Shown: positions 1 through 46,354, counted from the stretch's first letter. The stretch: DNA of 64,000 bases from a virus (IMGVR_UViG_3300045988_043972:1-64000); one strand, 5' to 3'. Program-made: numbers and translations. The notes: generated from the sequence alone by a model not told the origin.

Positions 1-123
1 ATCTGTATCAGTAATTACACGTACATTTTCCGCATATCTATACTGATTGTCTGGTATCATAGTTACATCTGTATCTAGATTCATACCACCAACGAAAGTA
101 TTTGTCTATAATGTATTAGTCAT
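1..123 (-). CDS. First 41 codons of a late/virion protein that runs off the window start
   Basis: ATG 123-121 overlaps the upstream stop (TAATG). Sequence MTNTL-TAG-TNTFVGGMNLDTDVTMIPDNQYRYAENV, with one in-frame TAG. Confidence 0.45.
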
Positions 124-1031
124 TATCTATTCCAATTATAAAGTATTTGTTCATCTCCTGTACTCTCAAAGAATGTATCATGATCTCTCATCTCAGTATA
201 AGGTTTGTGCCATACATTCTTAATAGTTTCTAATTCATCTACAGTAGGCATCATAGCTTCTGCATATGCCTATCTACGGTAGAAGTTCCATGAGTTTCTC
301 ATATCATAGTATATATTCTAATTCAGCTGTCCTTTTAAATATTTAGGATAAGACATCTTCATTGCTACATACCAGAATATAGCTTCAAAATATGATGGTA
401 TATCTGGTATCATGGGCATACTATCTTCATCAGTAGGTATAGCGTGATAAGATACTTTAACCCAACCACATGGTACATTAACTGTAATGTAACCCGGTTT
501 AGTAGAGTACTGTAGGCTAGTATTGAATGTAGCAGGATTACCTACTATAAGTCTACCATTGTTACTAGGTACAGTATACTGATTTACTAAAGCACTAAGT
601 GTTTGTTTAATGTTCTAATCACTGTTGAGTATCTCTAATGCATCCTTATCATTATCTAAGTTAAAGATATTCTTTACTAGTGGAAGTAAAGCATTATCTT
701 GTATCAACATCTTAGGATCACATTCTCCACACTTCTTATATATACCAAAAGAGTTAGTCACCTTTCTCATTGGTAACCAACCACAACTATTCTCAAATGA
801 GAATGCAACTTGATTTAATCTATACAGATCACACGGTAGTTTAGCTTGATAGTCACATATCTTCAGATTAGCTACTTTGTGTTCTAACTATTGAACAGCT
901 CCAATCTTTTCCATGGCTTCAGATATCCACTCTCGTATGTCCGTTATTTTAATATCGTCTTCTTTTAAATCCAAATCAGCTATAATCTTAGCAATAACTG
1001 CTTTGGATGATACCATATTATTATTTATCAT
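123..1031 (-). CDS. Hypothetical late/virion protein, 302 aa, TAG-recoded
   Basis: Frame is open from ATG 1031 to TAA 125-123 only if 4 in-frame TAG are sense; no in-frame TAA/TGA. N-terminus MINNNMVSSKAVIAKIIADLDLKEDD. Confidence 0.6.
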
Positions 1032-1695
1032 AATTATTATCTTTGTGATATTTCCATTTAAATCCGTACGCTGATTTGTATTTTCCCTAACAACATCTTT
1101 TTATAGATACTCTTTTGTTAATATTGCCCATATGTTTTGCAGCGTCTGCTATAGAATCATATGTGCACATATAAGTATTATCTAATGAGTACATATCTAT
1201 CTTTTTTCTCTGTGATGCAACAAGGGCACTGGTTTTCATCCATTCTGATTTTTTCTATAGACTTGACTCGCTCCACTGTCTGTTTTTATTACTATTAGCA
1301 ATTATCTACTTATGAGCCTCTGATATAGCGTGTCCACTATTGTGTATTCCAGTGGTTTTTCCTGCAACCTTACATATATTGTAGTCACCCAGTTCATCTA
1401 TATATTTCTATTCGATAAATAGCAAAGTATCCTTCACGTCTTCGCAAGTTTCTAATATCAAAAAACCGAAATGTTTCTATCCATATTTATTGAAAGCGCG
1501 CTATAATATAGTATTAGAATGTTTATTATTACATAGTTCATTGAAATGCTAACGGTATCTTCTTCTTATAGAGCTGCTAGATCCAATATATTTTTTATTG
1601 TTCAATAGATTAACTATAGCGTATACCCCAGATACGTCATCAAATTGGTACTATCCGTCCTACTTGAATTCAAATATATTATCGAATTTCAACAT
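1021..1695 (-). CDS. GIY-YIG family homing endonuclease with C-terminal NUMOD-like DNA-binding region (224 aa, 9 in-frame TAG)
   Basis: GVYAIVNLLNNKKYIGSSSSIRRRYRQH..NKYG block matches the GIY-YIG signature; C-terminus ..SAYGFKWKY. The 675-nt frame is open only with TAG as sense. Both ends overlap the neighbouring genes. Confidence 0.8.
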
Positions 1696-2122
1696 AATCG
1701 TGTTCTCTATTCTTAATTATCTATGCTAGCCTTCTCTTATTAGCTCTTGAAGCTACGAACTAATACTTTGTCTTATTAGTAAGTAGACAATCCTTCTTAC
1801 TCCACAGGAATCTAAACTTGTAGTAATTACTGTGTTCGTTAATAAAGTAAATAGGTTTACCTTGTATCTTACTTTCGTGATAATCTATTCTTAAGCTCTT
1901 GTTATCAAAGTTCTTAGGCTATCTCTTAACTATACTTAGATTACCTAGTCTACATGGAAGTTTAAACTCTCTGCTGTTATCCATAACTTCCTCTACTATA
2001 TACTTAAAGTAATCTTCAACTATATGTCTGTATGTTTTGTAATCAACATCATATACAGTTTCCCTTTCGATATAAGATAAGTAGAACTCATAGAAGTCGC
2101 TTATTGTATAAGATTTCTTCAT
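1679..2122 (-). CDS. Small basic protein, possible DNA-binding (147 aa, 3 TAG)
   Basis: Track ORF 1919..2122 continues in frame through 3 TAG to TAA 1681-1679. Lys/Arg-rich C-terminal half (..FVASRANKRRLAQIIKNREH). Function is only a guess. Confidence 0.5.
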
Positions 2123-2142
2123 TGCTATCTAACATTAATGTT

Positions 2143-2781
2143 CTACATATCATCTCTAGAGTTATTAGTTTCGTCTGATGGCATCTGATGCATGATATTC
2201 AATTCTTTAGTAAATATCATATCTTTGATTACAGGTATCATATGCGCAGGTGCAGGATATGGACTATCAGGATCAAAACATTCATTGATATCAGCAGGGT
2301 TCTCAGCTATTACTCCTATCTCTACCCATTCAAGCTGGTGATCATTACCCGGATCTTCTACATACAATCTATTGTTTTTGATGTATGCTATATAGTCTCC
2401 GCAAGTATATTTTCTATACTTTTGATATTTCATCTTTGTTTCATTACCTAGCTGAATTAGATTACCAAACATGTCTTTTACATATACTAGACCTGTTCTA
2501 AAATGAAAGTCTATCAGTTTAGGTAGTTCTATGTCACTTCTATATTCTATATGACCTGCTGTACTATCTATTCTATCAATGTGTACACATGGAATAGTTT
2601 GAACATACATAGGATTTATATCTCTACCCTTATCTATGTCCTGCTTGATGAGTACAGCTCTATAGTTGTGAATCCATTGCTCAATCTATATTCTACTTAT
2701 ATGTTCTGATTCAGCAACAGAACTATTGCGCAATTCAAGTAGAATATCATCAATAATAGTATTCAGTGTGTTTAATTTCAT
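2143..2781 (-). CDS. Hypothetical late protein, 212 aa (1 TAG)
   Basis: Track ORF 2143..2610 extends in frame across one TAG to ATG 2781 (MKLNTLNTIIDDILLELRNS..). Confidence 0.6.
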
Positions 2782-2894
2782 AATGCATTATTTATTAAAT
2801 ATCTTTATAACGTATTTAGATGCGTTCTAAGCCATTTTATAGGTGTAGTAGTACAATTGGTCAAGTAATATAATAGCGTTTGTCTAGAAGTCTT

Positions 2895-2924
2895 AAAATA
2901 AAAAAAGGCTAGTATTAACTAGCC
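2895..2924 (-). terminator. Rho-independent terminator
   Basis: On the minus strand GGCTAGT-TAAT-ACTAGCC is followed by TTTTTTTATTTT. The stop of the upstream gene lies in the loop. Confidence 0.6.
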
Positions 2925-3481
2925 TCATTCATTGCATTCTGTATATTCTATGGTAACATCTGTTTCATCTAAGGTGGAACCATATTACTTGCTTGCTTTA
3001 TTAATCCTTTTAATTCTGCAACTTGTTCTTGTAATTCTTTTATTCTAGGATCTTCTTGTTTCAAATTTTCCTCCTAATAATCCAACTACTTGAGTATTGC
3101 ATCGCACTTATTCATTTCTTCTTCATACTTAGCTAAAGCCTCCTTCTTTGCTTTGTATTCGTTATAATTATTCTTTACCATTGTTATTATCTGCTGTTTA
3201 TCTGTTGCAATAGTTAAACCTACAGTTCCATCCGTTATGATAGACTTATTTTCTTCTACAGATAATTTCTTCTATTCACCATCACACCCTATTGTTATAT
3301 CAACTAGTTTTTTTCTATTCTAATTTGGTAGAGGAAACTATTGAGGAGGAAGGGGTTCATCATAAACCTTGGATACATTCATTACAGTACCTTTATAATA
3401 AGTAGTACTTTTCTTGAACGTTCCGGTTATCTCTAATACATGTATAGGATCTCCTATATTTAATTGTGCAAATGTTATCAT
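2915..3481 (-). CDS. Coiled-coil late protein, 188 aa (7 TAG)
   Basis: Hand triplet scan from ATG 3481 to TAA 2917-2915 found 7 in-frame TAG and no TAA/TGA. The C-terminal half is K/E/Q-rich and heptad-like. Confidence 0.6.
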
Positions 3482-3498
3482 AATAAGTATTTATTAAA

Positions 3499-3520
3499 GG
3501 GCTCCTAAGAGCCCTTTTTT
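3499..3520. terminator. GC hairpin between late genes, possibly a bidirectional terminator
   Basis: GGGCTC-CTAA-GAGCCC with T6 on the plus side and TTTAATAAAT on the minus side. It lies directly after the stop of 3530..3964. Confidence 0.4.
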
Positions 3521-3529
3521 GATTAAAGA

Positions 3530-3964
3530 TTACGCAGTAGCAGTAGTAGGCGGTATAATATGGTTTACAGTTTGAAATATACCATTTGATTTATTATAGT
3601 AAATCAGATATCTATTGCCAGTGGATATTTCTTCTGTAGCCATTTGATCGCCTGAACCATTTATAAGAGCTCTAGCCCCTGTAGAAGTAGTAGTCGTAGG
3701 ACTTACTTGATTAGCTGTTCTAGTAGTATCTATACTTACTAAAGAAGCTGCAGTTACTGTTGCAGCAGGGGTATTTACTATATTAAGTAAAAACATTCCT
3801 TCACAAGGAAGTTGTCTCCAGATTCTAGGACAGATACCATAAGTAACAGTATTGTTGGTAGTATCAGTGGTAACATATATCGTTCTCAACGAAGGTATAC
3901 CAAAGTTATCTATAGTTCTTACTCTACTTCTGTTAAATGTATAAGGATTAAAATTAAAAAACAT
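3530..3964 (-). CDS. Thr/Asn-rich hypothetical protein, 144 aa
   Basis: ATG 3964 is preceded by AAGGAGG. The longer track ORF start (3997) overlaps the upstream gene. Confidence 0.6.
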   Translation of the reverse strand: MFFNFNPYTFNRSRVRTIDNFGIPSLRTIYVTTDTTNNTVTYGICPRIWRQLPCEGMFLLNIVNTPAATVTAASLVSIDTTRTANQVSPTTTTSTGARALINGSGDQMATEEISTGNRYLIYYNKSNGIFQTVNHIIPPTTATA

Positions 3965-3978
3965 ATTTACCTCCTTTC

Positions 3979-4842
3979 TTAGCATCCACAGCCACATCCA
4001 TCAGAGTAACCATTGTAACCATAGCCTGTAAAGCCACCATTACATCCATACGGGTTACAAGTCAGATATGCAGGAACCGGAGTAGGTCTTAACTGATTAA
4101 CAATGTTAGCGGTTTGAGCTTGCTGAGAAGCAGCTAAAGCCAACTGATTGTTTTCTTGACGCAATGAGTCAATCTTGTTCTGCATTTCACGCATTTCAAG
4201 TTGACAGAATCTGTCATTAATTATTTGAGTCTAAGCGTCTATTTTAGCACCCAAGATGTTGAACTGAGTATTAGCGTTGCTTGTCAGAGTATTAGTCTGA
4301 TTTACAATAGCTAATTGGCTCTCATAACCCTGAGTAGTTATAGCGTTACGTACATCACAGCAGCAAGAAGCCAATTGTGATGCAAGGCTAGCATTACCAC
4401 TCTGGATAGCATTGATTACTTGTGCGCCTGTCAATTTAGTATCACAAGCTATCTGGCTAACACTAGTATTAATAGTGTTCAGTGCATTCTGTACTGCATT
4501 AATATCACAATTCAAAGTATTGGACAAAGTAGCGATAGCTTCTTTGTTACCATTGATTGCTTGCATTAACAAGTTAGTATTAGCATCTGTGTTCAACTGA
4601 GAAGCAAGCTGTGAAGCTTCACCACTTCTGTTACCGAAGCCGTTGCCTCCCCAGCCACCCCAGCAGAAGAAGATCAGGATAATCCAGATCCACCACCATC
4701 CGCCGTTACCGCCGAATCCGCCATTGTTATTCATCATAGCCATCAAAGCAGCAGGGTCCATACCTTTATTTGCATTCTGCATTAAAGCAGCCAGACCAGC
4801 GTCAAAACCGCGGTCTTGAAGGATAATTTTATCTTCTAACAT
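3979..4842 (-). CDS. Membrane-anchored coiled-coil protein with Trp/Gly-rich TM segment and Cys/Gly-rich C-terminus (287 aa, 1 TAG)
   Basis: Track ORFs 4231..4842 and 3979..4194 are in frame and joined by TAG 4233-4231. Contains GGWWWIWIILIFFCWGGWGG and the C-terminus CNPYGCNGGFTGYGYNGYSDGCGCGC. Confidence 0.65.
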
Positions 4843-4874
4843 AATTGATTTTATTTAGGATTGATTTAATTTGA

Positions 4875-5480
4875 TTAATATCTAATATAACGTACAGAAC
4901 GACCGCGTTTGAGTTCATCTTCGTAAGGAAACATCTTTTCCTTCTCATAGTCTCTCTCATCGTATTCTCTGTCATATTCTCTACGTCTACCATATGAAGA
5001 TCTCCCCATTCTTCCACCTCTACGGTAAGTTCCATAGGGTTCGTCATCGTCATCATCTTCATCTTCATATTTGCTGTAGTTTCTATCGAAGTATTCTTCT
5101 TCTGCATCTCTCAGCTTATCGCACATTACATAAATATAATAGTACCACATTTTACCTTCATCAATGTCTTTGTCACATATCCAGGCTTTAGCTAACTCTA
5201 CGAAATACTTAGAGTTATTAGAACCTGTCATGTTAACAATTACTTTGTAGTAATCTGAGTAAACCATATTCAATGCAACATACCAATCATACTTATTGAA
5301 CTTGCTATCAAAGCGAATTCCGTATTGATTTGCAAGAGCAGAAGTTTCTTCTACAGACCAATGTTGGCCTCTAGATCCGTCTTCGTTTTCCATCTTACTT
5401 ACAGCTTTACGTGCATGTTCTTCATCAAAGTGAGGACCATGTTTAGCTTCATAAGCTTTTGTACGGATTATTCTATGCAT
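4875..5480 (-). CDS. Hypothetical protein with acidic then Arg/Tyr-rich tail, 201 aa
   Basis: Intact track ORF with no TAG. Tail reads EDEDDDDDEPYGTYRRGGRMGRSSYGRRREYDREYDERDYEKE. Confidence 0.7.
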   Translation of the reverse strand: MHRIIRTKAYEAKHGPHFDEEHARKAVSKMENEDGSRGQHWSVEETSALANQYGIRFDSKFNKYDWYVALNMVYSDYYKVIVNMTGSNNSKYFVELAKAWICDKDIDEGKMWYYYIYVMCDKLRDAEEEYFDRNYSKYEDEDDDDDEPYGTYRRGGRMGRSSYGRRREYDREYDERDYEKEKMFPYEDELKRGRSVRYIRY

Positions 5481-5510
5481 ATTATTATTGATTAATATTA
5501 TAGATTGATT

Positions 5511-6149
5511 TTATTTACTAATCTCTATTATTCTAGTATCTGTTACTTTGATAAGTTTGTTAGAGTTGTTAATCGTATATTTTCTGTGAATATCTTTTTT
5601 AAAATCAAAGTGGAAGAATCTGGCTAGCCACGTCTTATACTTATTACGATATTCTTTCTTTTCTTCTACAAACAGCGTTTGCTAGTTTTTTAAATCTAAT
5701 GTGGCTGTTAAGATTGAGTCTTTTCTACTTACTATGATAGTTGTTAAATCATTTAACTTTAATTCCTAAGTAAAGTCAACCTCTTTGGTTTTAATTACTG
5801 TTTTGACGGAATCTTTAACTTCGGTATTGATTACCTGTGCCTATACCAGATTCTTGTCTTTGATTTTTAATTTCTTTTTAGTATCGTTCAACTATTGTAC
5901 TATACTATCTCTACTAGTATTAAGATCAGATATAGTTAGTTGTAACGTTCGATTTTCTTTTCTACTTGAATCTAATAACGATTCATAATATTCACTATTA
6001 TTGGATAGTCTAGCTATTTCCTTGTCCTTCTTTTGTAGCTGCTTGTACATAAAAAAAGCACTTACCGACAGTATACATATGAAACCTATGGTAAGTGCTC
6101 TGAAATGTGTTGCAAGCCAGTTAACTACTGATATTATTGCTGTTATCAT
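5511..6149 (-). CDS. N-terminal TM plus coiled-coil protein, possible spanin-like lysis component (212 aa, 4 TAG)
   Basis: Track ORF 5892..6149 continues through TAG codons to TAA 5513-5511. A hydrophobic N-terminus is followed by a K/E/L-rich region. Confidence 0.5.
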
Positions 6150-6651
6150 TGTTATTTGGTTTAAAATCTTTTATATCTAAATCTACTCCTAGATACTTTT
6201 CACCTTTAGCTTTGATAACTTTGCCTAGTACTTTTTCTAATACTTTACATATTTTGCAATCCGGATGTAAGTCCTTCATTGATTCTAGCCAGGATATGAA
6301 TTCAGTTCCACATATCATACCAGATACAAACTCTACGGCATGTAAGTTCAATGAGGTAACTATATGAGTATCTATAACGTATGCTCCTACTATCAACAAT
6401 GTAGCTTCAAATACTTTATTAATAGTTTTCCATAACTTATAAGACTCGATATGTTTGTGTCCGTATTTCCTTGATACTTTGTAACCTAATATGACATCTA
6501 TCAGTATAAAACTAGTTGCCGCAATTATAGCTACCTAAACTGGTGCTAAGAAAGATGTTATTCCAGCAAAGCAACTGCTGGCGAATCTCCCTGCGCTACT
6601 GAATATACTTTTGAACAAAGTCATTATTGAATCTCCTATATCGTGAATCAT
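6121..6651 (-). CDS. Holin-like multi-TM protein (176 aa, 1 TAG)
   Basis: Track ORF 6121..6399 extends upstream across one TAG to ATG 6651 (alternative 6624). Several hydrophobic segments. Resemblance to phage holin families is from memory only. Confidence 0.5.
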
Positions 6652-6671
6652 AGCAAGTATTTTGAGAAAGT

Positions 6672-6701
6672 AAAAAACCCTGAGAGATTGCTCTGACAGG
6701 G
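6672..6701 (-). terminator. Rho-independent terminator after the RT gene
   Basis: Minus strand has CCCTGTCAGAG..CTCTCAGGG followed by TTTTTT. Confidence 0.6.
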
Positions 6702-6746
6702 ATGATATTTTATCTGAGATATACCTTAAAAACGTATGTTATTGCG

Positions 6747-7772
6747 TTAGGTTTTCTTCTTCTTACTTTTTGATATGTATCGCAATAGCTCTTTATGTTT
6801 AGTCATTTTACTAAATAAATTACGACCATTACAGTACTTAATCCAACCTATATAACTACATATTTTCTATTGATAAGTACTCTTGTCTAGGTTATCTTTT
6901 TTGTTCAATTTACTTACTCTTTTACAGAAATTCTTCTTAATATGTTTTCTTAATAGAGTGTGAGTATGAAATATCTTATACCCTACAAAATCTATTCCTC
7001 TATCGTCAACTTTAAATATTTGCCAGTTGTCTTTAAAGTTAATATTAAGTCTTTCTTCTAAGTACTACTTCATATCCTTAAATAACTATCTTAAATAGTC
7101 TTTGTCTCCATGAAGTATTACAATATCATCTGCGTATCTGAAATAGTATTTTATATGTTTTTCTTCTTTGATCCAGTGATCTAGATATGTTAAATATAGA
7201 TTAGCAAAGAATTGTGATAAGTAATTACCAATTGGTACTCCCTATGCAGAATCTATTATTTCATCTAATATAATTAATAATTTCTTATCTTTTACTTTTC
7301 TTCTTATTAGCTATTTTAATATATCATGATCTATTGAAGGATAAAATTTTCTGACATCTAACTTAAGACAGTATTTTGTATTGGCTTCATCTTTCAGTGC
7401 GAACTTAACATCTTTCAGAGCTTTATGTATACCACGATTTTTTATACAACTATAAGTTCCTTTAATGAAGGATGATACCCAAATAGGTTCCATAATATTC
7501 ATAATAGCATGATGTACTATTCTATCTGGATAGTATGGAAGCTTGAATATTTCTCTTTCTTTAGGTTCATATATCTTGAATATATAATATTCAGAAGTCT
7601 TATATTCACCATCTATTAATTTCTTCTATAGATCTAAAAGTAATTTTTCTCTATTCTTATCAAAATTAATTATTTCAGGTCTATGTTGTTTTTGTCTTCT
7701 AGCTCTTTTATCCGCTAGATATAAATTGTCTAAAGTTACTATTTTGTCAAATAAATTATTATATCTTTTCAT
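6747..7772 (-). CDS. DGR-type reverse transcriptase (341 aa, 6 in-frame TAG)
   Basis: Translation gives ..YEPKEREIFKLPYYPDRIVHHA.., SCIKNRGIHKA, LDVRKFYPSIDH, GVPIGNYLSQFFANLYL, YFRYADDIVIL, GIDFVGY. It lies immediately downstream of the TR. Confidence 0.9.
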
Positions 7773-7890
7773 CTGTAATCCATTACCGAGTTTTCACGAA
7801 AAAAGTTACTAACACAGTTAATTAGTATGTTATCTTTTACCAAGGGGTAAGGTCTCCCTCTACAGTCTCTTAATTTCTTTATTTGTTTAA

Positions 7891-8014
7891 TTACGGATTC
7901 AGTGTACTGACATTAGCATTAGCATTGCTGAGCTCATTGTTAGAATTAACATTGAGTAAGCCTGAATTAGCACTATTACTCGCATTACTGCTTAATGATG
8001 AGGAACAACCTATC
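7891..8014 (-). repeat. DGR template repeat (TR)
   Basis: Coding-sense TR is Asn-codon rich (AGC AGT AAT GCG AGT AAT AGT GCT AAT TCA GGC TTA CTC AAT GTT AAT TCT AAC AAT GAG ..). It aligns to VR1 and VR2 with differences only at its adenines. Confidence 0.85.
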
Positions 8015-8030
8015 TATATTTTTAATTAAA

Positions 8031-8159
8031 TTACGGTATATAGATTAACCGAGTACCGACATCAGCATAAGCAGCGCCGAGCCCACGGTGAGAATAAACA
8101 CTGAGCAAGCCCGAACCAGCACCACCACCCGCACTACCGCCTATTAATGTTAGCCTATC
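8031..8159 (-). repeat. DGR variable repeat VR1 (3' end of target gene 1)
   Basis: 8053-8143 aligns gap-free to 7904-7994. By hand I count 23 mismatches in 91 nt, all where the plus-strand TR has T (A in coding sense). Confidence 0.85.
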
Positions 8160-9272
8160 AGTTGTACTATTATTAGTCCAATTGTAGTCACACCAATAAG
8201 TTGTATTACTACCACCAAATGCTTCATCTATTGGAGGAAGTATGTCAAATGCTGCATTGTATACCAATTTCTTCTTATAACCTTCAGTAATAGCAGTACT
8301 ACATTGATAGTCATAATCAGATATATCAGTAGATCCAAATGTACTTAAGTCGGTATTTATATAAACGTCATTTTTATTAGTTTGTGCATTAAAATGCATA
8401 AGTGTGTCTATACAATTTTTCCATACATGACCAAATGGATTTTCAATACCTCTATAAGTAGGAACATTATAAGACTTCTGAGTTGCAACACCTTCTGCAT
8501 CAGTACTATTAACAGTAACAGAAGTTATACCAGTAGAGTTTCCATGTTCGTCTGTACTTCCACAAGGTATAAAACTCCATGTATCAACTCCATTTACTTT
8601 AATATTACCTGTAGTAACTCCATCTCCTAAGCCTCCTTGATGATATCCTTCTGCAGTTAATTCGGCATTGAAAGCTTTCTAACTGTTGGTACATGCATAT
8701 TCAACTAAGTAAAGCACAGTAAGTATTCTATGAGCTCTGTAAGTATACATGTTCCAATTCGTAGTACTGGAGTTATTAGCCCTAGCTCTAGATTGCATAG
8801 TAGTTCTATTAATGTTTACTACTGGAGTGATAGATCCATTGTTAATAGATTTTAACACATTGTCTACATTAGATGCTTCATATGCAGAAATATAGAACTT
8901 CTCCACATGTTCAGCTTCTGGAATATGAGGATTTGCTGGATATAAGTTCAAATATACAGTAGTATCATCTCTCATACATTTATACCAGAACTCTGGTATT
9001 TCTACCATAGTATTTAATGTCATGTCTCTATCAGTACCATCTTCATACTTGGTTCTATCTGTAGCATTAAGATATTTAACTGTTCCATCAGAAGTAATCG
9101 TGCAAGACTTCATCTTAGAATGTATAGGAAGTTCTTTATGCCAAGGCATATACCCGGTTCTAGTCAATAATGTACTCTACGGTTCTATAGGAAAGCTAAC
9201 TCCATAATAGTTAGTAAATACATTAACATCGCCAAGATATGCAGCTACAATATTTTTATCTCCTAATTTCAT
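8031..9272 (-). CDS. DGR target 1: tail-associated variable protein (413 aa, 2 TAG)
   Basis: Track ORFs 8679..9167 and 8031..8399 are in frame with ATG 9272. The C-terminus ..YNWTNNSTTDRLTLIGGSAGGGAGSGLLSVYSHRGLGAAYADVGTRLIYIP is encoded by VR1. Confidence 0.85.
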
Positions 9273-9273
9273 A

Positions 9274-9804
9274 TTATTCGTGAATTAAATATAGTGTTTT
9301 AGAATCTTTAACAGACAAAGTGTCATATTCTGTCTAAGTCATAGATACTACAGTAGATACTTCATCAGATGTTACACAGTGACTCAAGTCTACTGTTTCA
9401 GATAACTTATCCCATTCAGCAGGACTAGCTACAATACATACATAGTTAGCACCAGTATCTGTTAGATTATATACGTCTCCAACTACAGCTGTAGCAGGTA
9501 GTGCTTCGAAATTAGCTACAGAACCTTTCACTCTATATACAGATGCTACTTTAGCATCTACTTGTTCCTTAGTATATGCATCCTGAATACCATAACCAGA
9601 CAAAGTAGTAGCTTTATTTGCTTTATTAGCTAGTTCTTTGTTAATAGATTCAATTAGATCATTATCAGTAATAGTACTCCATTCAGATCCAGTCCATGCT
9701 TTAATACATCTACCATATGGATCAGTTTGTAAGTCTATCCAATACTGTACTTCTTTGTGATTGGGGGTTGACTTACTAGGTACGAAATTTATAGTTTCTC
9801 TCAT
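9274..9804 (-). CDS. Tail-fibre-like protein, 176 aa (1 TAG)
   Basis: Track ORF 9334..9804, then TAG, then 19 codons to TAA 9276-9274, ending just before the next ATG. Confidence 0.55.
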
Positions 9805-10076
9805 AGTTGTTCTTCTTTATTAGTCCATTTATCACTGCTTAACAATTTCTGTAATTCTTCTCCTTCATAGGTAGGATACGGATATACTACTTCCGGAGTT
9901 TCATCTTCTTCTGTTAAAGGTAATGTCATTGCTGATGGAAATAGTAATTCATAGTTAGCAACTTTCATGATTACTTCAGTTCCATCTACACTATAACGAA
10001 ATACTAAATGCATTTCGTCTAGCGTATCTTGTGTTATATCAATCAGCACTTCGGCTGGTACAACAATATATTTCAT
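9801..10076 (-). CDS. Hypothetical protein, 91 aa
   Basis: Intact track ORF. Both ends overlap the neighbouring genes by 4 nt. Confidence 0.6.
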   Translation of the reverse strand: MKYIVVPAEVLIDITQDTLDEMHLVFRYSVDGTEVIMKVANYELLFPSAMTLPLTEEDETPEVVYPYPTYEGEELQKLLSSDKWTNKEEQL

Positions 10077-32166: not shown

Positions 32167-32187
32167 AGTTATTACAGTAATTTATTA

Positions 32188-33168: not shown

Positions 33169-33291
33169 AATTATATATTTTATTTAGTTTAACAATGTGC
33201 GCTCATGTAAACTTTTTTGTTCATGTACTACTTTCCTTATTTCAGATTTCCACGCCCATGAACGCGTTTATTATTCGTCAGATTTATCTGA

Positions 33292-33933: not shown

Positions 33934-33956
33934 AATTATTCAGATAATTGGTTTAA

Positions 33957-35386: not shown

Positions 35387-35416
35387 AATATCAAATATTA
35401 GATTATCTAGTTAGGT

Positions 35417-35432
35417 GGGGCCCGAAGGCCCC
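35417..35432. terminator. GC hairpin after the capsid gene
   Basis: GGGGCC-CGAA-GGCCCC. The T-tract (TTTATTTT) is on the plus side and only an A-tract precedes it on the minus strand, so it may be a stabiliser or bidirectional terminator. Confidence 0.4.
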
Positions 35433-35457
35433 TTTATTTTGGATTCCAGAGTGTAAA

Positions 35458-36927: not shown

Positions 36928-36962
36928 AAAATACTAGTAATTTTAATTTATTTAGTTTATTA

Positions 36963-38129
36963 TTAATTTGTACGCAACTGTTGCGCAAAAGACTTCCACA
37001 TATCTGTAGTGCTAGTGTTGTCCGTTTTCTTTGTTCTCCTACTTACACCAGTCTTATTCAGACTACTCTTAAACTTATTGATAGCAGTATTAGAACCTTC
37101 ATTCTTAGCTGCTTTCAGTAAAGTATCACCTTTCATAGTGAAGTAAGCGGATTCAAGCAAATTCTTTACGCTCTTAGACCAGTCTTTCTAATACTGTGTC
37201 TTACCCTCGGCGTCAGGCTTAAAGATATATTCTAACAAGGCTTTCTTGTCTTTTTCTGGTATCTTAATACCGCGAATATCATCCATGCCTTTTATTTCGT
37301 TGACAACGCTATTAAAGTATTCCTGTTGACGCTTTGCAGCAGCCTTAGCTTGGTTTTCTTGGTCTTTCAATAGCTGTTGTTTCTTTTGCTCTTTAATCTC
37401 TTTGAGGGCTTCTAAAGCATCTTCAGCCTCATCTTCAAGCAAACCAGCATCTTCATATTTGGACAATTTCTTTTCAATCTGTTTAGCATTAAATCCTTTC
37501 TCTTTCAAGAATTCTTTTACTACAAGTTTCTGGTTTACTTCATCGTCCTCAATACTAATCTCTTCAAGATCTAATTCTCCGTCAATCTCAAAGTAATCTC
37601 TCAGATTGCCACCATTCTTAACAAAGTTGTCCAATGCTTCTACTTCCTCACTGGCATACTGAGGTACTGAGTTCTCTTCGATTACTGATTGAAAATAGTC
37701 AACAAGCTCTTCAGGAGTAGAAGGAACTTCATCTTCTTCATCTAGTTCCCAGCCCATTTTCTCTGCCATTACTCCGAAGAATGCGCTCACTGCATTAGTG
37801 TCATCATCAGTTTCTTCAGTTTCTGTACTTCCCTCGTCTTCTCCAGTTGAATTATCATCTTTTTCAACTTCTTTATCCTTCCCGGTCTTCTTTTTAGCAG
37901 GCGTGTCCTCCTTTTCATCCTCTTTAGTCGAATTATCATCTTCTTTGTCTTTTTTAGGATTACGTAATGCTTCAAGTTCCTCGTCAGTCAATTCTTCTCC
38001 AGCAGCATCTATATCCGGATTAATAACTTCTTCTTCCTGTTCAGTCTGCTGTGTTTCTTTTTTTGGTACATTAGCTCCTGGCAGGAAGTCTTCAAATACT
38101 TCAAAACCGTTTAATGTAATTTCTTCCAT
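36963..38129 (-). CDS. Acidic coiled-coil scaffold-like protein, 388 aa (1 TAG)
   Basis: Track ORFs 37188..38129 and 36963..37160 are joined in frame by TAG 37190-37188. Long D/E/K-rich stretches. Lies directly upstream of the MCP candidate. Confidence 0.6.
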
Positions 38130-38147
38130 AATTATATATAATTAGAT

Positions 38148-38387
38148 TTATTTTTTCTTTCTTCCTTTATGTTTCCACTTCTTAGCATTCTAAGCAAAGA
38201 TAGCTCTCTTACGAGTCAATGGGTTTTTGCTATGTGTAAGTTCTTCAGTACTTTTGCCAGTACGTTTCTTTAAGGCATTAAACTTACCTCTATTCTCTTT
38301 CTTGATATGTATGCCACCATCCTTATACTTAGGAATTGGATATTCTGGCATTATCAGCGCCATATCTATTTGATATGAATTATCCAT
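38148..38387 (-). CDS. Small basic protein, 79 aa if TAG is read through
   Basis: Track ORF 38190..38387 ends at TAG. 13 further in-frame codons (NAKKWKHKGRKKK) reach TAA 38150-38148. Confidence 0.5.
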
Positions 38388-39649
38388 TATACTATAGTGT
38401 TATTATCGTTATTATTTACTATAGGTATCATCTGAAAGTCCTTGTTGAATAACTTAGGACTTCTATAAAGATTGAAGATTGCTTTGATATTATTGAAGCT
38501 TTCTCTAGGAGCATCAATTATTTCCTTCTTCAAATTCTTATAACTACCTGTATAGTTTCCTCTATTTAGTTTACCTTTCTGATTCAAGTAATTCCTAAAC
38601 TAATTCATGTAGCTCTTGATTTCAGTACCCTGTAATATGTTATTGTACATATCCCTGGTCATATTAGGATACATAGTCTTAGCCTGATTGAATGGGATGA
38701 ATTTGCTCTTGTCTCCAAGTTTTCTTAAGAACTCATTATTCATGCCAGCTGCACCGTCTACCAAGTGACCCATTTCATGAAGCACTACACTATTAGGAAT
38801 ATCTTCTGGTGTTTTGATCATGTCTCTATTGAAATACATAGTATTTCCTTCTGAAGGAGTAACTTGTGCTCCAATAGTAGGTCTTTCCATCTTCTTGTAT
38901 TTCGGTTCTGGAAGTTGGAAGTATTCATCAATATCAACATATTTCTCTAACATACTATCATACACCTTCAGATAATCTGTACCATACTGATGATCCACAG
39001 CCTTTGCTCTTTCTCTAGCATACGGTTCCTGCATTAAATCGTATGTTCTATTACGTTGATCATTTATCTCTTCAACTAGACTTAATGGCATGTCTGAATA
39101 ACTTTTCTGCTCATGTAGAGCCTTATCTATAACATTCTATTTATAGTTAGGGTCCACTTTAGGAATATAAGTACTCTTAGGTTTACTGATTTTCTTAGAA
39201 GATCTAACAGCAACTCCTCCAAAACTAGGCACAAAAGGGACTAGACCCAAAGCTGCTAATCCTGCATTTCCCCAGTCTTTGTTCCTTAAAGCTTTATAAG
39301 TATCATATACAGATATAGCGTCTCCCACAGGTGTTACGTTCGCAGCGTCTTCTATATCTCCTACTGGCCTTAATCCTCTAATGAATGGTTTCCCAGTGAA
39401 TCTATCAATCTCATCACTACTATTGTTATAATAATCAGCCAACTGATCTTCAGTATACTTACGCCCATATCTATCTTTATATAATTTACCTTTATATGGT
39501 TGAGGCTCTTCAGGAATTATAGGTTTGTTGTTAGGTGGTATCTCTCCTCCTTCAGCATACTTTTTAAAGTCAAGATAAGTCTTACCGGGATTCTACTCCC
39601 GGTACTACTTCAACTATTGCATCCTATTTCTAAATGCTTGTCTGTCCAT
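38387..39649 (-). CDS. 420-aa virion-module protein with HExxH zinc-metallopeptidase motif (5 TAG)
   Basis: Track ORFs 39137..39442, 38600..39091 and 38387..38587 share one frame from ATG 39649. Motif VVLHEMGHLVDG. Confidence 0.65.
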
Positions 39650-39697
39650 AACCTTATTTCTTTACAGGTTTCTTTCCGCCTTTCTTGCATCCCATAA

Positions 39698-40051
39698 TTA
39701 ATCCTCCTTATAACTTTTAATTTTACAGTACTTCAACCAAGAATAATGTTTCCTAGTCTCAGGGTAAGTGTAGTTATCATCATTATTGTGAGCTTCCTCT
39801 TCAAAGCTAACATCGTGATATACTACATCTTGCTTGTCAAAGAATCTAAGTAGTCTAATAATACAGTACTCTATTCCATACCATAAGTAAAATGGTAACC
39901 ATAGCATCTCTTGCATCTACTTCAAATGAATCTTCTCGTGATTATATTCTTTAGCATTTATTTTAGATGCATCTCTAGTAAATATTAAGCCAAATAGATT
40001 TATATATTTATAACCCTTAAAAGGTATCCATTTATTCTGTATTACTCTCAT
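39698..40051 (-). CDS. Small HExxH-motif protein, 117 aa (1 TAG)
   Basis: Frame from ATG 40051 crosses one TAG into track ORF 39698..39916. Motif NHEKIHLKQ. Confidence 0.55.
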
Positions 40052-40052
40052 A

Positions 40053-42557
40053 TTATTTCTCTCCCGCTACTTTATTCTTTAATGCTGTTCTAGCTTTAAT
40101 TCTTTCTCTTTCAAGAGCCGCATCATCTTTTTGTTTTTGGATATCTTTTTGAGCTTGCAATTTCTGTTTTTCAAGTTCAATCTTCTTATCCTCTATCTCC
40201 TTCTTCAATTGTTGTTCACGCATTTTAGCATTGAACTCAAACTGTTTAGAAGCTTCTTCTGATGCTTGCTTTCTCTCTTCAAGTGCTTGTGCTGCTATTT
40301 CCATAGTATCTGGAATACCATTATCATTCTGATCTTGATCTTCCAAACCTCTATAAGCATTAAGTTGAGCTACTGTAATCTTAGTTGCATTATTCTGATC
40401 AATCTCATATTTCTTAAGATCCATTTCTGCTTCTTTGATCATTAACTCTTCTTCCTTAACCTCATTCTGCATTTGTAACATCTACTGTTCACGTTCAGCT
40501 TGTGCTTGTTCCATAGCTTGCTGTTGTTCCATACGTTTCTGTTCAATTTCCTCTAATCTATTTTTGATCATAGTAACATTGTCCAGAGTAATGATTTCAG
40601 CAATATCTAATAGACTAGCACCATTCTGCATAGCAGGTTGCATAAGGTTCTTAAGTGCTTCTATCTATTGTTGATTCTTAGTAGTATCTTCTACAAATAT
40701 ATCGAAATCTTCATAGAACATATCATCATTAAGAGTTATAAATGCTCTAGTAGCATCATCAAATACATATTGTAAACTCGTTTTACTATCCTTCCAAGCA
40801 TACTTAGCTGTATTTAATAGCATGATCAAACACTCTCTCTTTACTTGGTTATGAACCCAAAACCATGGCTCTGTAATATGAGCTGATTGTACTACAGATC
40901 TTTCTACATTACCTACTAATTCATTAGATGAAATAGAACCTTCACGTTGTTTAGATACACCAGTTATCTCTGACAACATGGCTTCTATCTTATCCATCAA
41001 TGCTATATACTGATCAATAGTATTAGCCATAGTAAGATCTAATGCTGTGATCTGATTGAACTATGACGGTTTACCTCCTTCTCTACCAGGTATATCCCAA
41101 CCTTCTTCATATGGGTTGATAAAGTTAACCCCAAGTGCAGATAAGTAATGCATCCACTTAGCTACGTCTATATTCATAGACTTAGGAATCTAAGTAATAT
41201 CCATATTTACTACTTTACCCTTATCTCTTGACATAGCAAGTTCTAGACGATACCAAAGTACAATATACATGTACTGTAATGGTTTCATCATGCTTACTAA
41301 TGATCTAGGTCTACTATTAGTATTATTGTATATTACTCCAGTATACGGTAATCTCTATGCATTAGGATTATCGGCAGATACATGTTGGTACTCAATAGGA
41401 CCCATACCAAAGTAAAGATCATCTCCTGCTCTATATCCTTCCCATGTCTCAATGATCCATTTCCATTCTACACTTATTTCAGTACCTGTCTCATTGTATG
41501 ATTCATCTACAATATATTCTACCGGTTCTCCTGTTTCAGGGTCTGCAATAGTAACAAATGCTATCTTTCTAAATGACTACCAACAACAATGCCATACACT
41601 AATTGCATTAGTACTATCAAACGGGTTAGATGTAAACCCATTAATACTATGAGTCTTTATATGTGGGTAGTCTAACGATGTCTTTCTTACTTCAGGATTG
41701 AACCCTCCTTTAGACGTATCATCCATCATGTCTAGGAGCTGATTTAGCTGCTTCTCAGACAGTTTATCATAATACCTGTCATATATATCAGTAGCAGATA
41801 ATTTCATCTCATATACGCACCATTGAGCGTCATGGATATACTCTAAGTCTGAAGTATCTGTATCGTAATCAAAGTAAATAGGATTAATGCGCTCTAGGCA
41901 GGGATTACCATTCTGTATACCTACGTAATAGATCTCCTCCCCGCCTATTAGTGCATCCTTCCAGCCTTTATAGAACTCATGTGTAATATTAAGTTTATTC
42001 TTTAAATAATTCAAACTATGGTATGCAGTTATCTCTGCTATATCCTTATAGTCTTTACTCATGTATTTCTGTATCTATTCAGGAGGCATAATCTCACCAG
42101 ACTGCAATGCTTGCTGATATCTAGCTTGTTCTTCTGGACCTAGCTTACTCATGATAGTAGCTTGTATGTACTGAATAAGGAGTTCTTTAGCCTTATCCTA
42201 CATCTCACTAGTAGCTATCTCACTAGTACGTACTACTTTGAAGTTAAACGGTCTTTTTGTTTCTTCTCCTAATAGTAGGTCAATCTTAGGCTTAACTATA
42301 TTATAGTCCTATGCCATTGCAGGAAATCCATCCTATTGCTTAAATGGATTAGTAACATACTTTAGATCTTTCTCATTGTATATACTATTATAAAGATCAT
42401 AGTATGTCTACATTTCCTCTTTGCGAGTTCTGTTATTGCCATTTCTAGAACCTCCCATACTTCTACCTATAATATAGTCTACACAAGATTCTTTCCAGTC
42501 TTGTGTCTTCTTAGAAGATGGTAATTTCTATATTGGAAACTGATTGATATTTCTCAT
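40053..42557 (-). CDS. Portal protein candidate, 834 aa (12 TAG)
   Basis: Hand scan from ATG 42557 to TAA 40055-40053 found 12 in-frame TAG and no TAA/TGA. Joins track ORFs 41577..42062, 40665..41030 and 40053..40481. Immediately downstream of terL; Q/E/K-rich coiled-coil C-terminus. Confidence 0.7.
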
Positions 42558-42559
42558 AA

Positions 42560-44524
42560 TTAAAACATATATGCTTTTAGATTATCAATGGATTCATCGT
42601 CATGAAACCATTCTTGAGTAAAGATAGGACCTTCAAATAGTATCCTATTCTTATTCTCTTTTTTCTTCTCTTTAACCTTTACATTATAGAGCTGTTCTCT
42701 ATAAATCATTACTTGCATCAACGCCATGACCCTATCGAAGTTTCCAGTGTCATTATAGCTTATAAGTTCTTCTAATAGCGGCTCTGATAGTATGTTATGT
42801 AGGTTCTTCTTACCAGGTGCTTGTTCTTCGTTTAGCCAATCTTTGATTAAGCCTTCACCCCATTGCTTAATCTGTTTATTCATATGACAACCCTTCTTTC
42901 TCTATACTTTAGTATTACCTACTATATCAGATATAATATCAGGTTGATCAGCCAATAGATAATCACAATGCTTAGCAGTAAAGTAAGGAAATAAGCCTTT
43001 ACGCTCATTTTCATACATTATCCTACCATTATAGTATACTGCTAGCTTACGTAGGTTTTCATAGTATTCTTCAGCTGTTGATGGACGTCCAGTATATTCA
43101 GCAACAATTATATCATAATAGTTCTCAAAGTCCTAGAATCGCTTATATACGAATGTAGATCCTAATGAGTTAGTACCAGACTAATCATGGTCATACGGGT
43201 CAACTCCTAATATGTATAGTCCTATAGGAGCATCTTTCATTGGGTGTTCCCATATTACTATTGAACCTGTAGGATCATCGTCTTTTTTCAAAGGATAATG
43301 CGTAATATCACCGTGTTTCTTAATAACCCATTTAAGTGACCCATCTGTTTCCCATACTAGATCACCTACTTGTTTCATATTACTAAGGCTCTTATTGATA
43401 CGTATTTTGGCTAATTGCTCTTGTAATTCCTTTTTAGGGAATATGTTACCACCAAACTCCAAACACGCTTCCTAGGGCGTTATACAGTGTTCTGCAACGT
43501 ATCTATCTACTGCTACAGAGTTAGTAGCATTTTCTATTACTTTTCTACGCTCAGCTAATATATACTCTACAGACTTTCTACGTAACGTATTTCCATCATT
43601 GTCCATGTATATTCTGTTACCAGCATCATCACGGAAGTCCATGTTAGTATACTGAGGTATAAAGAATCCACACTTTTTATCTGATGGAGTTTCATCCCAT
43701 ATGTTATCAAATCCTATACAGTTATAACCATCTGGATTATAGAACATATCTTTAAGAGTCTCAAAATGGCTATCTTCGTCACCACCTGTACCGAATGCAA
43801 TCATAGTACCGAATGCCATGCCATCTTGCTCTACAGACGGTCTAGCAATCTGCCATGCAGCACCTAGTTCTGAGAATGAACCAGCTTCTTCAAAGATAAT
43901 TAATTTACCAGCTTTACCACGAACTACGTCAGGATTATCTTTTAGAGTAACACCAATTATTTCTGACTTGAAACCTAATTCTATCTCATTACCATACTCA
44001 TCTTTAGTAAAGAATCCAGCACGTTTACGCATCTAAGTATTAACAGATCTTTTCTTACCCCAAGCTGTATTCTTATCTATAAAGTCCATATAGTCCCATG
44101 CTTTAGTAAGAATACCGTCTTCTGTTAAATACTGTTTATTACTAGCATATATGTATGTTTTACTACCAGCAAATAAGTAATAGTTACGACAAGCCATGGC
44201 TGCATTCTTATAAGAATAACCTTTACGTCTACTCTTCAATGCACATAAATGTTTGCCTTCTCCTTCAGCATCTTCTACCGCTTGAAAGAAGTAATAGTCG
44301 TAATCGTAGAAATCTGGAAACTATAGATCACGTGTCTTTTTTATCTTAGTAGATCCATCTGGATTGTTTATAGTAGTATAGATAATTCTTTGAATGGGAC
44401 AGAAGTTTAAATAAAAATAGTTATACCCACTGATGAAATCTCCATCATCAGCTGTATAACCATATTTACATCTGTCCATCTATTCGTCCCAGTATTTAAA
44501 GTACTCTGATGTACCTTCTGGGTA
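42560..44524 (-). CDS. terL: Terminase large subunit, main (3') exon
   Basis: One frame joins track ORFs 44033..44239, 43472..44032, 43181..43462 and 42560..42883 through TAG only. Motifs ..ALKSRRKGYS.., ..KLIIFEEAGSF.., ..ILGVDPYDHD... The upstream boundary is approximate. Confidence 0.8.
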
Positions 44525-45309
44525 CTAACAATAAGAGCCGACTTCGAGAAATCTCAGAGCCGGCTGTCTAAACTTATTGCTGTTTTTTATCTATTTATTG
44601 AAGTCTACCATCTTGTGAATTACTTAATCTGTATCTTTTAGGATATCTTTTATATAGAGTATCTTCTTTATATATAATATAATGTATAGTTCCTTTACTG
44701 GATATATTATATTTATTCATTAATTGAGTATATGTAAAACCAGATTCTCTATCTTTTCTTATATTTTCTACTATATCTGCAGAGTATTTTCTACGTATTT
44801 GACCACAATTAATAGATATCAGTTCTTTTGGAATATCGTGTTTATTGTCTTTAATAGTTCCTATTCCTATATTATCGTAAGAATTATCATATCTATCTCC
44901 ATTCAAGTGTCTTACTACTATTCCATCTTCATAAATTTTATCACCAAACTTTTGATATGCTTGTAACCTGTGAATCATACAATGTACCTTCTTATTTTCT
45001 CTTCTAGGTCCTATTCTTATATCGAAATTGTAGTAATCTCTCTTACGATCTTTTATCCTACCTTTTACTTGTACTCCATTTCTGTTTAAAAGAATTCCAT
45101 CTTTTGTGACAGTGTAACCCTTAATAAGGGCTAATTCTTCTGGTTTTATCATACTTCTTTAATTTTTAATTGGTCGGCGTAGTAGGAGTCAAACCCACCC
45201 GGTCGGCTTCAGAGGCCACACGGTTTTAGAGACCGTCCATGCAATCGTACATCATACGCCGAAATGTGCCGGGGAATACTTATTGTCCATCCCCGTTGGA
45301 CGTCTTGTA
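44525..45309 (-). mobile_element. Probable group I-type intron carrying an HNH homing-endonuclease ORF (boundaries approximate)
   Basis: G+C-rich structured segments flank the HNH ORF. Examples: CGGCGTA..TACGCCG long-range pair and ACGGT-CTCTAAA-ACCGT upstream; CAATAAG..CTTATTG enclosing a 12-bp hairpin downstream. The insert ends in G just before TACCCAGAAGG. Confidence 0.5.
44595..45152 (-). CDS. HNH homing endonuclease, 185 aa
   Basis: ..VHCMIHRLQAYQKFG..VVRHLNGDRYDNSYDNIGIGTIKDNKHD.. is an HNH_3-like pattern, followed by a C-terminal helix-turn-helix-like region. No TAG. Confidence 0.8.
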   Translation of the reverse strand: MIKPEELALIKGYTVTKDGILLNRNGVQVKGRIKDRKRDYYNFDIRIGPRRENKKVHCMIHRLQAYQKFGDKIYEDGIVVRHLNGDRYDNSYDNIGIGTIKDNKHDIPKELISINCGQIRRKYSADIVENIRKDRESGFTYTQLMNKYNISSKGTIHYIIYKEDTLYKRYPKRYRLSNSQDGRLQ

Positions 45310-45447
45310 TCAGAACCAAGATTTAATTCTTTGCCACAATGAAGGCTTTTTCGCCTTCATTATAGCTTCATGAGCTTCATAGATATCAGCCCAGAATTTC
45401 TCTGCACCTTGTGTTGCATCAATCGAAATAATCATCTGCTTTTTCAT
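45310..45447 (-). CDS. terL: Candidate terL 5' exon (45-codon ORF ending at TGA inside the structured insert)
   Basis: Sequence MKKQMIISIDATQGAEKFWADIYEAHEAIMKAKKPSLWQRIKSWF. It could instead be an independent small gene. Confidence 0.4.
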   Translation of the reverse strand: MKKQMIISIDATQGAEKFWADIYEAHEAIMKAKKPSLWQRIKSWF

Positions 45448-45507
45448 ATTAGTTTAGTTTTATAACACCTATAACGTGTTGTTTATTTTATGTTGTTTTT
45501 TACTGTA

Positions 45508-46041
45508 TTATCCTGCCAACTCATAAGGATTAACCTTGGCGTCGCCTTTTACTTTACCCATTGCTAATTCTTCAGCTTGAACCATAGATTTTAAAGCCTC
45601 TATACTCTTAATAGTATTGGCAGTAGATCCCATTCCAGCTAGCAAATCTTTAATCTTTTTCTCGTCCAAACAATCATCTAGTGAATCTTCATACCACTTT
45701 GTAACAGAGTCTAGTTTGTTCATTTGAGCGTCTAGCATCTTAAGTATCCTAGTATTTTGCCAGTCTATGTATTCTTGTTCAGCTATCTTTTCATCTTCAG
45801 TAAGCTGATAATTTACATCGTTGAATACTTGCTCTTTTAACCTTATTTCCCTAGTAGAAGCATCCATGCTCTTCTTATATGGGCTACTCCACTTGTGCAT
45901 AAGTACTATATAAGTAATAACAAGCTCTTGATGAATCTTATCTTCTGAAGTATCTTGTTCGTATAACTTTTTAAATGCTGGTACAAAGTATAAGTCAGGA
46001 TGAATTACTACTTTACCGCCTACTATATCAACAAGATTCAT
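45508..46041 (-). CDS. Hypothetical protein upstream of terL, 177 aa (small-terminase position)
   Basis: Intact track ORF. The small-terminase idea rests on position only. Confidence 0.6.
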   Translation of the reverse strand: MNLVDIVGGKVVIHPDLYFVPAFKKLYEQDTSEDKIHQELVITYIVLMHKWSSPYKKSMDASTREIRLKEQVFNDVNYQLTEDEKIAEQEYIDWQNTRILKMLDAQMNKLDSVTKWYEDSLDDCLDEKKIKDLLAGMGSTANTIKSIEALKSMVQAEELAMGKVKGDAKVNPYELAG

Positions 46042-46354
46042 TCTTTTCTTCTTTATATTCTTTGTGATACTTCATTTTCTCTAAAGCTTTATTCAGATCA
46101 TAAGCAGCAACTTTGTCTGTAATGACTATTACTTCAGTCATTTCCTTATTCTCTTTCTTAGAGAAATAATATATTGGAATGACGATATCTCCAGCATTAA
46201 CATCAATCAACTAAGTTTCCGTGATTACTTGTCCACTCTTTTGTGGAGAGTACATTTCATTACAATATACATATGTTGGGCTACAATATCCTATGCTGTT
46301 AGTATCAGTATCGTATACTACGATACGACCTCTTTTAATTAAAATCTTTTCCAT
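46028..46354 (-). CDS. Hypothetical protein, 108 aa (1 TAG); first recoded gene in the transcription direction
   Basis: ATG 46354 overlaps the upstream TGA. The frame crosses TAG into track ORF 46028..46210. Confidence 0.55.

Follow-up and report, generated by a model that had tools for sequence, protein, structure and literature searches.

The analysed stretch, hereafter the window, comprises 64,000 nucleotides (nt) of a viral genome (IMGVR_UViG_3300045988_043972:1-64000) in which the structural, lysis, and other late genes of a long leftward arm, on the minus strand, are interrupted by in-frame TAG triplets, and in which a 91-nt tRNA gene with the anticodon CUA lies in the same arm. The window belongs to a Buchavirus crAss-like phage of human-gut Bacteroidales and covers about two thirds of its genome. 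The segment from 40 to 46.5 kb showed 96% nucleotide identity to the RefSeq genome CrAssphage cr113_1 over 92% of its length, and the segment from 1 to 24 kb showed 90-91% identity to cr60_1 and cr109_1 over 75-78% of its length; all three genomes are classified as Crassvirales; Suoliviridae; Loutivirinae; Buchavirus, and their gene order was shared by the window. The window probably represents a further species or strain of this genus. It is a common gut phage that had been catalogued before, and hundreds of public contigs, each about 100 kb long, were found to encode proteins 99% identical to its terminase large subunit (TerL). The principal features are listed in Table 1.

When TAG was read as sense and TAA and TGA were kept as stops, 31 late gene models were obtained, and these contained 143 in-frame TAG in 14,203 codons and no in-frame TAA or TGA. 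The models themselves ended at TAA (27 genes) or TGA (4 genes), and adjoining genes were joined by ATGA (three junctions), TAATG (two), and TGATG (one). Counts in the remaining two frames of these genes were 892 TAG, 1490 TAA, and 942 TGA, so that TAG made up 27% of off-frame stop triplets; from this share, the probability that all 143 interruptions would be TAG by chance was approximately 1e-82. An original prediction made from the DNA sequence had described interruptions exclusively by TAG, gene ends at TAA or TGA with ATGA and TAATG overlaps, and 31, 12, 10, 9, 7, and 6 TAG in six named genes, and each of these statements was reproduced exactly. Its further statement that every large gene of the arm was broken went too far; four late genes were free of TAG (3530-3997, 4875-5480, 32188-33168, and 34634-35386), and the tail-fibre-like gene at 10073-14194 and the major head protein gene each contained a single one.

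Re-prediction with alternative codes, a check that had been proposed with the original prediction, restored the genes. Coverage of positions 1-46354 by greedy, non-overlapping open reading frames (ORFs) on the minus strand rose from 62% under the standard code to 94% with TAG as sense, and reassignment of TGA or TAA in the late arm was rejected, since the corresponding coverages were 62% and 66%. The same long genes are already annotated through TAG in the RefSeq records of cr113_1, cr60_1, cr109_1, and cr56_1, as with the portal gene, the terminase gene, and the internalin-like gene of 7.9 kb, and in the homologous place, with the small upstream genes on one side and the terminase gene on the other, these records show a “tRNA-Gln.” The recoding of TAG to glutamine (Gln) in the late genes of the window is thus real, and was rightly likened at the outset to that of crAss-like phages, but it is already known, having been described and annotated in close relatives.

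Table 1. Features of the window and related tRNA loci. Coordinates refer to the window unless another locus is named.
Feature	Coordinates	Strand	Remarks
Late/structural/lysis block, 31 gene models, 143 TAG	123..44611	-	Homologues full length in RefSeq relatives
GIY-YIG homing endonuclease gene, 9 TAG	1021..1695	-	Pfam GIY-YIG
Reverse transcriptase gene of diversity-generating retroelement, 6 TAG	6747..7772	-	Pfam RVT_1
RT-17 RNA of the retroelement	7766..7854	-	
Template repeat of the retroelement	7902..7991	-	
Variable repeat of the retroelement	8051..8140	-	Inside gene 8031..9272
Internalin-like/receptor-binding protein gene, 2647 codons, 31 TAG	15077..23020	-	Coding sequence of same length in cr113_1, cr60_1, cr109_1
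“Phosphatase” structural gene, 1126 codons, 10 TAG	23017..26397	-	ATGA overlap onto next gene
Collagen-repeat fibre/minor structural protein gene, 906 codons, 7 TAG	27416..30136	-	
Major head protein gene, 1 TAG (codon 32)	35458..36927	-	
Portal protein gene, 12 TAG	40053..42557	-	
Terminase large subunit gene, 9 TAG	42560..44611	-	
Suppressor tRNA gene, anticodon CUA, 91 nt	45171..45261	-	ARAGORN
Small gene upstream of tRNA, TAG at codon 48	46028..46354	-	TAG kept in cr60_1
Small gene upstream of tRNA, TAG at codons 4 and 67	47541..47768	-	Codon 4 opposite Gln in cr4_1
Transcriptional-regulator gene upstream of tRNA, TAG at codon 85	48101..48493	-	Gln in cr4_1; lysine in cr1_1, cr10_1, cr125_1
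Divergent switch region between leftward TAG-sense arm and rightward standard-code arm	49500..51000	.	GC skew sign change
Early gene, most likely TAG end	53166..53618	+	cr4_1 and cr125_1 homologues end within a few codons
Early gene ending at TAG	57236..57514	+	cr4_1 homologue: TAA or TGA at identical alignment position
Four Rfam structured RNAs	52051-52260, 53727-53855, 55488-55644, 56576-56677	+	
Sister-species CUA tRNA, 75 nt (cr60_1)	L003 2177-2251		
Sister-species CUA tRNAs, 80 nt	L004 1109-1188, L005 38121-38200		

The CUA tRNA, for which a search had been recommended, was the only tRNA found by ARAGORN in the whole window. Its gene points the same way as the recoded genes and is followed closely by an HNH endonuclease gene and then by the terminase gene. 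In the predicted cloverleaf, the acceptor stem has 7 bp, with discriminator A and a CCA end encoded by the gene; the D arm consists of a 4-bp stem and a 6-nt loop (ACGAUU) without GG; the anticodon arm is normal, its loop being CUCUAAA; the variable region comprises about 21 nt; and the T loop reads UUUGACU. An identical gene in cr113_1 is labelled “tRNA-Gln.” In an Rfam scan, the window tRNA reached no gathering score and had no match to the tRNA model RF00005; its best match, tRNA-Sec (RF01852), scored 37.6 bits, below the threshold of 47. Membership in tRNA-Sec was rejected on the basis of this sub-threshold score, the anticodon (CUA rather than UCA), and the acceptor stem (seven pairs followed by A-CCA rather than 8 bp). 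The gene also departs from canonical bacterial tRNA-Gln in its variable region, in its D loop, and in its failure to reach the RF00005 gathering score. Position 1:72 is weak or unpaired in canonical tRNA-Gln (U1:A72 in Escherichia coli); it is C1:G72 in the window tRNA, and U1:A72 was seen in just one (L015) of five variants of the molecule. The label tRNA-Pyl, which ARAGORN gives to any CUA anticodon, did not fit the long variable region or the aligned residues, which point to Gln.

The five variants were represented by 18 IMG/VR contigs that carry the same 91-nt body, always with CTA at the anticodon. Among them, all seven acceptor pairs and one anticodon-stem pair were changed on both sides, and the cloverleaf remained 100% paired; none of 500 shuffles, and no slid register, reached 100% pairing. 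Judged by this covariation, the 91-nt tRNA is a selected, structured RNA. A pattern scan of 185,579 species genomes for a bacterial source, in which the body was allowed any anticodon, found nothing.

The recoded region proved longer than originally stated. Its limit had been placed at about 46.35 kb, but sense TAG also occurred in the two genes at 47541-47768 and 48101-48493. Homologues of the latter, a transcriptional-regulator gene, extended 45 codons beyond the TAG of the window, and those of cr4_1 and cr125_1 had in-frame TAGs of their own elsewhere, several of them opposite a Gln codon of the window. In view of the three upstream genes with sense TAG, the recoded domain is the whole leftward arm to about 48.5 kb, ending at the divergent region between 49.5 and 51 kb.

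Among the 17 rightward genes beyond that region, none had TAG in frame and two appear to terminate at it, as is compatible with the standard code. Comparison with the cr4_1 homologue indicated that TAG is clearly a true stop in the early gene at 57236-57514. For the early gene at 53166-53618, the positions at which the homologues end suggested that TAG is probably a true stop as well, and the 21-codon extension that read-through would add had no match among homologues. In cr113_1 (L031 3179-3697), RefSeq holds a 519-nt read-through form of the homologue of this gene, which in the window would run to 53684; that form is probably an over-extension resulting from genome-wide reading of TAG as Gln. 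One genome therefore appears to use TAG with two meanings, as a stop in the early genes and as Gln in the leftward arm. For annotation, the leftward arm should be translated with TAG as Gln and the rightward arm by the standard code; if one code is used for the window, either about 30 genes are fragmented or early genes are made too long.

The amino acid assigned to TAG was determined by mapping each TAG of the window to the aligned codon in related DNA, and database proteins were not counted. In four Buchavirus genomes, the codons opposite window TAGs (n = 483) were TAG in 305 cases, CAA in 72, CAG in 37, and GAA in 11, with others scattered, so that CAA and CAG accounted for 109 of the 178 non-TAG codons. 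Among other recoded Suoliviridae (cr4_1, cr125_1, cr130_1, and cr273_1), Gln was likewise the commonest non-TAG residue, and among relatives without TAG in the aligned columns (cr1_1, cr10_1, and Azobacteroides phage ProJPt-Bp1) it was again the commonest, at 26 of 100. The likelihood of each of the 20 residues was then compared by using substitution profiles drawn from the same alignments, and Gln was the maximum-likelihood residue in all three sets, by more than 400 nats in Buchavirus, about 80 nats in other recoded Suoliviridae, and 39 nats in cr1_1, cr10_1, and ProJPt-Bp1. The reciprocal comparison showed that the TAGs of relatives lie mostly opposite a TAG or a Gln codon of the window. 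When TAG was counted as Gln, the Gln content of the late genes was 3.8%, equal to that of the early genes; TAG made up 27% of all Gln codons in the late block and 11% in the block upstream of the tRNA. A weak check was provided by solved structures (I-TevI and a reverse transcriptase [RT] of a diversity-generating retroelement [DGR]) aligned to the GIY-YIG and RT proteins, in which Gln stood at 2 of 10 TAG positions and tyrosine (Tyr), serine (Ser), or leucine (Leu) at none.

As judged from aligned codons, the evolutionary meaning of TAG in the leftward arm is Gln. The homologue alignment that the original prediction had put forward as a check thus bore it out, in that homologues continue without a break where the window has TAG, and the residue found opposite it is Gln. 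Its choice of Gln stood, and its reservation that this could not be proven from the sequence alone was too cautious. Peptides with Gln at TAG positions have been found by metaproteomics just for two other crAss-like phages (Peters et al.; PMC9523058).

The shape of the tRNA would by itself point elsewhere, as the variable region of about 21 nt, the discriminator A, and the best Rfam match to tRNA-Sec might befit a tRNA that inserts Tyr, Ser, or Leu, the usual bacterial identities with long variable arms, or pyrrolysine (Pyl), as the ARAGORN label has it. The Tyr tRNA supF of E. coli, which has a CUA anticodon, remains a Tyr acceptor. Decoding of TAG as one of these residues is nonetheless very improbable. 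Opposite window TAGs in Buchavirus, Tyr was found at none of the 178 non-TAG positions and Ser and Leu at 2% each, and in the three relatives without TAG, Tyr, Ser, and Leu accounted for 5, 5, and 2 of 100 residues against 26 for Gln. Neither Tyr nor Leu was among the six best-scoring residues in any of the three sets, and Ser was among them just in the comparison with the standard-code relatives, where it lay 53 nats behind Gln. Moreover, genomes with the same 91-nt tRNA body exchange TAG mainly with CAA and CAG, and on that exchange the tRNA appears to behave as a Gln decoder in evolution. For Pyl, a tRNA with a very short variable loop would be expected and pyl biosynthesis and synthetase genes would be required, and no pyl genes are annotated in the complete relative cr113_1. 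The Ser, Leu, Tyr, and Pyl identities suggested by tRNA shape or software label were therefore rejected on the likelihoods of the aligned residues.

Taken together, these results make it very probable that TAG in the leftward arm is read as Gln by means of the phage's own CUA tRNA and that the early genes follow the standard code. Under this arrangement, the rightward early genes are written in the standard code and the leftward arm in a code with TAG as Gln, TAG being sparse in the small genes between 46 and 48.5 kb and dense between 0.1 and 44.6 kb, in the genes for packaging, head, tail, lysis, homing endonucleases, and the DGR. The CUA tRNA, once made, would compete with host release factor 1 (RF1) at UAG, and its charging with Gln would fall to an enzyme of the host, presumably GlnRS, for which acceptance of suppressors with a CUA anticodon is known. 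Full-length late proteins would then be possible only after the tRNA had accumulated, and the code could act as a timing lock on the late and lysis genes, as in a published model. No release-factor or synthetase genes are annotated in the complete relative cr113_1, and the early proteins of the window were considered without profile searches; the release-factor check proposed with the original prediction thus agreed with this arrangement. In delta-group crAss-like phages, a change of TAG to Gln that affects chiefly the late genes and is accompanied by suppressor tRNAs has been reported (Yutin et al. 2021; PMC7886860).

Three points weigh against this reading. The first is the unlikeness of the window tRNA to tRNA-Gln, with its long variable region, shrunken D arm, strong C1:G72 pair, discriminator A, and sub-threshold Rfam score; because of this unusual structure, charging with Gln is not predictable from structure. 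The second is the presence of sense TAGs in three genes on the same strand upstream of the tRNA gene, which makes a simple picture of the tRNA first and recoded genes downstream of it incomplete. The third concerns database proteins: TerL entries 99% identical to that of the window (e.g., P0001) carry Gln at TAG positions, but these residues come from gene callers that assume code 15 and so are not independent evidence, and they were left unused.

The odd structure of the tRNA and the TAG-containing genes upstream of it could also mean that the phage tRNA is inactive or has another role, with TAG being decoded by a suppressor or a near-cognate tRNA-Gln of the host, or with RF1 weakened by some undetected factor of the phage; surveys, moreover, have found CUA tRNAs in just about 40% of TAG-recoded phages. 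Little credence can be given to this view. The tRNA body is invariant and the acceptor and anticodon stems keep their pairing by compensatory changes in the five variants, which indicates selection for a working tRNA. Each of the recoded Suoliviridae loci that were examined had a CUA tRNA and the three standard-code loci had none, a perfect association across 11 loci. In addition, the 31 TAGs of the internalin-like gene would need efficient decoding, beyond what near-cognate read-through is likely to supply. Finally, pseudogenisation or sequencing or assembly errors, with genes not expressed at full length, had nothing but the broken look of the genes under the standard code in their favour and can be dismissed as refuted by the TAG-only pattern (143 TAG against no other stop) and the conservation of TAG in independent relatives (305 of 483 aligned positions), as well as being at odds with the effect on essential genes (terminase, portal, and capsid) and with the near-identical full-length proteins on hundreds of contigs.

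Decoding by the phage tRNA leaves its unusual form to be considered. Within one genus, the same slot with the same upstream flank holds three CUA tRNA genes, of 91, 80, and 75 nt, the 80-nt type being found in cr109_1 and cr56_1 and the canonical 75-nt type in cr60_1. The 75-nt cr60_1 type and the 80-nt cr109_1 type passed the Rfam tRNA model at 53.8 and 50.7 bits, respectively. Variant L015 from IMG/VR combined the 91-nt body with the 5' acceptor strand TCCCCCG, as in the cr273_1 suppressor. The varied occupancy of the slot and the make-up of L015 suggest cassette-like replacement and chimeric tRNAs.

It is accordingly possible, although on balance somewhat doubtful, that the decoder of the window belongs to an undescribed class of Gln-inserting amber suppressor tRNA. 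Such a class would have the canonical 7/5 acceptor/T layout, a long, type-II-like variable arm, a reduced D arm, a T loop without C56, and an acceptor stem free to differ from lineage to lineage (C1:G72 or U1:A72). The anticodon and the body, rather than the acceptor-stem elements of known GlnRS substrates, would confer its Gln identity, and it would constitute a swappable cassette, having taken the place of two other CUA types in the same slot within the genus. Many TAG-recoded phages are described in the literature as lacking a detectable suppressor, and non-canonical tRNAs have been suspected. The 91-nt tRNA is a concrete example missed by covariance-model thresholds and, if the proposed class is correct, threshold-missed tRNAs of this type could account for part of the apparently suppressor-less TAG-recoded phages. 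A non-canonical CUA tRNA thus bears both on how a host synthetase is recruited for a code change and on the apparent absence of suppressors in recoded phages, and it is the sole part of these findings that goes beyond published work.

Several further tRNA-like and structured RNAs were observed. In cr60_1 (L003 2066-2168), a third tRNA-like match of 103 nt (Rfam tRNA, 35.2 bits) lay directly upstream of the CUA tRNA; it had no annotation in the record and was not called by ARAGORN. Genes resembling tmRNA were present in the early regions of cr125_1 (L007 37994-38443) and of the standard-code phage cr10_1 (L010 2969-3354), according to both ARAGORN and the record annotation, and ARAGORN found no tmRNA in the window. 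The early rightward arm of the window carries, on the plus strand and above Rfam gathering scores, four structured RNAs, namely, RAGATH-7, the Hatchet self-cleaving ribozyme, RAGATH-9, and RAGATH-20, of which the Hatchet ribozyme starts about 110 nt past the TAG stop of the gene at 53166-53618.

The single TAG (codon 14) of the 1373-codon, tail-fibre-like gene at 10073-14194 (minus strand), of which 11486-12371 is of special note, stood against 31 CAA or CAG codons. One part of this gene matched Bacteroides phage crAss002 at 93% identity, and a second part matched Bacteroides phage DAC16 at about 81%. To judge from these identities, the gene appears to have recently swapped receptor-binding segments with other Bacteroides phages, and its scarcity of TAG would be explained thereby.

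A complete DGR occupies 6747-9272 on the minus strand. Its repeats were found by local alignment, and 23 differences separated the 90-nt template and variable repeats, each of them at an adenine of the template (17 A-to-G, 3 A-to-T, and 3 A-to-C). The best solved relative of the RT was a DGR-type RT (8ub7, E value 5e-51), an Rfam RT-17 motif lies between the template repeat and the RT gene, and the target is a tail protein annotated in relatives as similar to major tropism determinant. Free-standing homing endonuclease genes whose presence varies among relatives were also seen on the minus strand, one of GIY-YIG type at 1021-1695 and one of HNH type at 44595-45152. In the GIY-YIG gene, 9 of 12 Gln codons were TAG, from which it follows that this mobile gene is adapted to the late code of the phage; the HNH gene, which adjoins the tRNA gene, contained no TAG.

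In comparison with known systems, the window resembles the RefSeq Buchavirus genomes (cr113_1, cr60_1, cr109_1, and cr56_1) in genus, gene order, genes read through TAG, the slot for a CUA tRNA upstream of the terminase gene, and early genes compatible with the standard code, and its gene content differs just in mobile endonucleases and in DGR and fibre segments. The 74- to 76-nt suppressors of Suoliviridae (cr60_1, cr4_1, cr125_1, cr130_1, and cr273_1) share with the window tRNA the CUA anticodon, discriminator A, 7-bp acceptor stem, 5-bp T stem, genomic neighbourhood, and inferred Gln meaning, but in them the variable loop is short and U1 pairs weakly or not at all with position 72, whereas the window tRNA has C1:G72 and about 21 nt. 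Allo-tRNAs and tRNA-Sec-like tRNAs, which occur in bacteria and phages, resemble it (Nucleic Acids Res 2017; PMC5389517) in a long variable arm, an unusual D arm, and, for some, nonsense-suppressor anticodons; the allo-tRNAs have 8/4 or 9/3 acceptor/T-stem layouts and include Ser and His species among others, whereas the window tRNA has the canonical 7/5 layout and TAG means Gln. With the published late-gene/lysis timer model (bioRxiv 10.1101/2021.08.26.457843), the window has in common a single unbroken block of structural and lysis genes in the alternative code, a suppressor tRNA, standard-code genes for replication and the early phase, and no phage release factor or synthetase; it differs in the sense TAGs of three small genes upstream of the tRNA and in the non-canonical tRNA itself. 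The window is a further example of a phage that uses two genetic codes within a single genome, on which the proposed late-gene/lysis timing lock is based.

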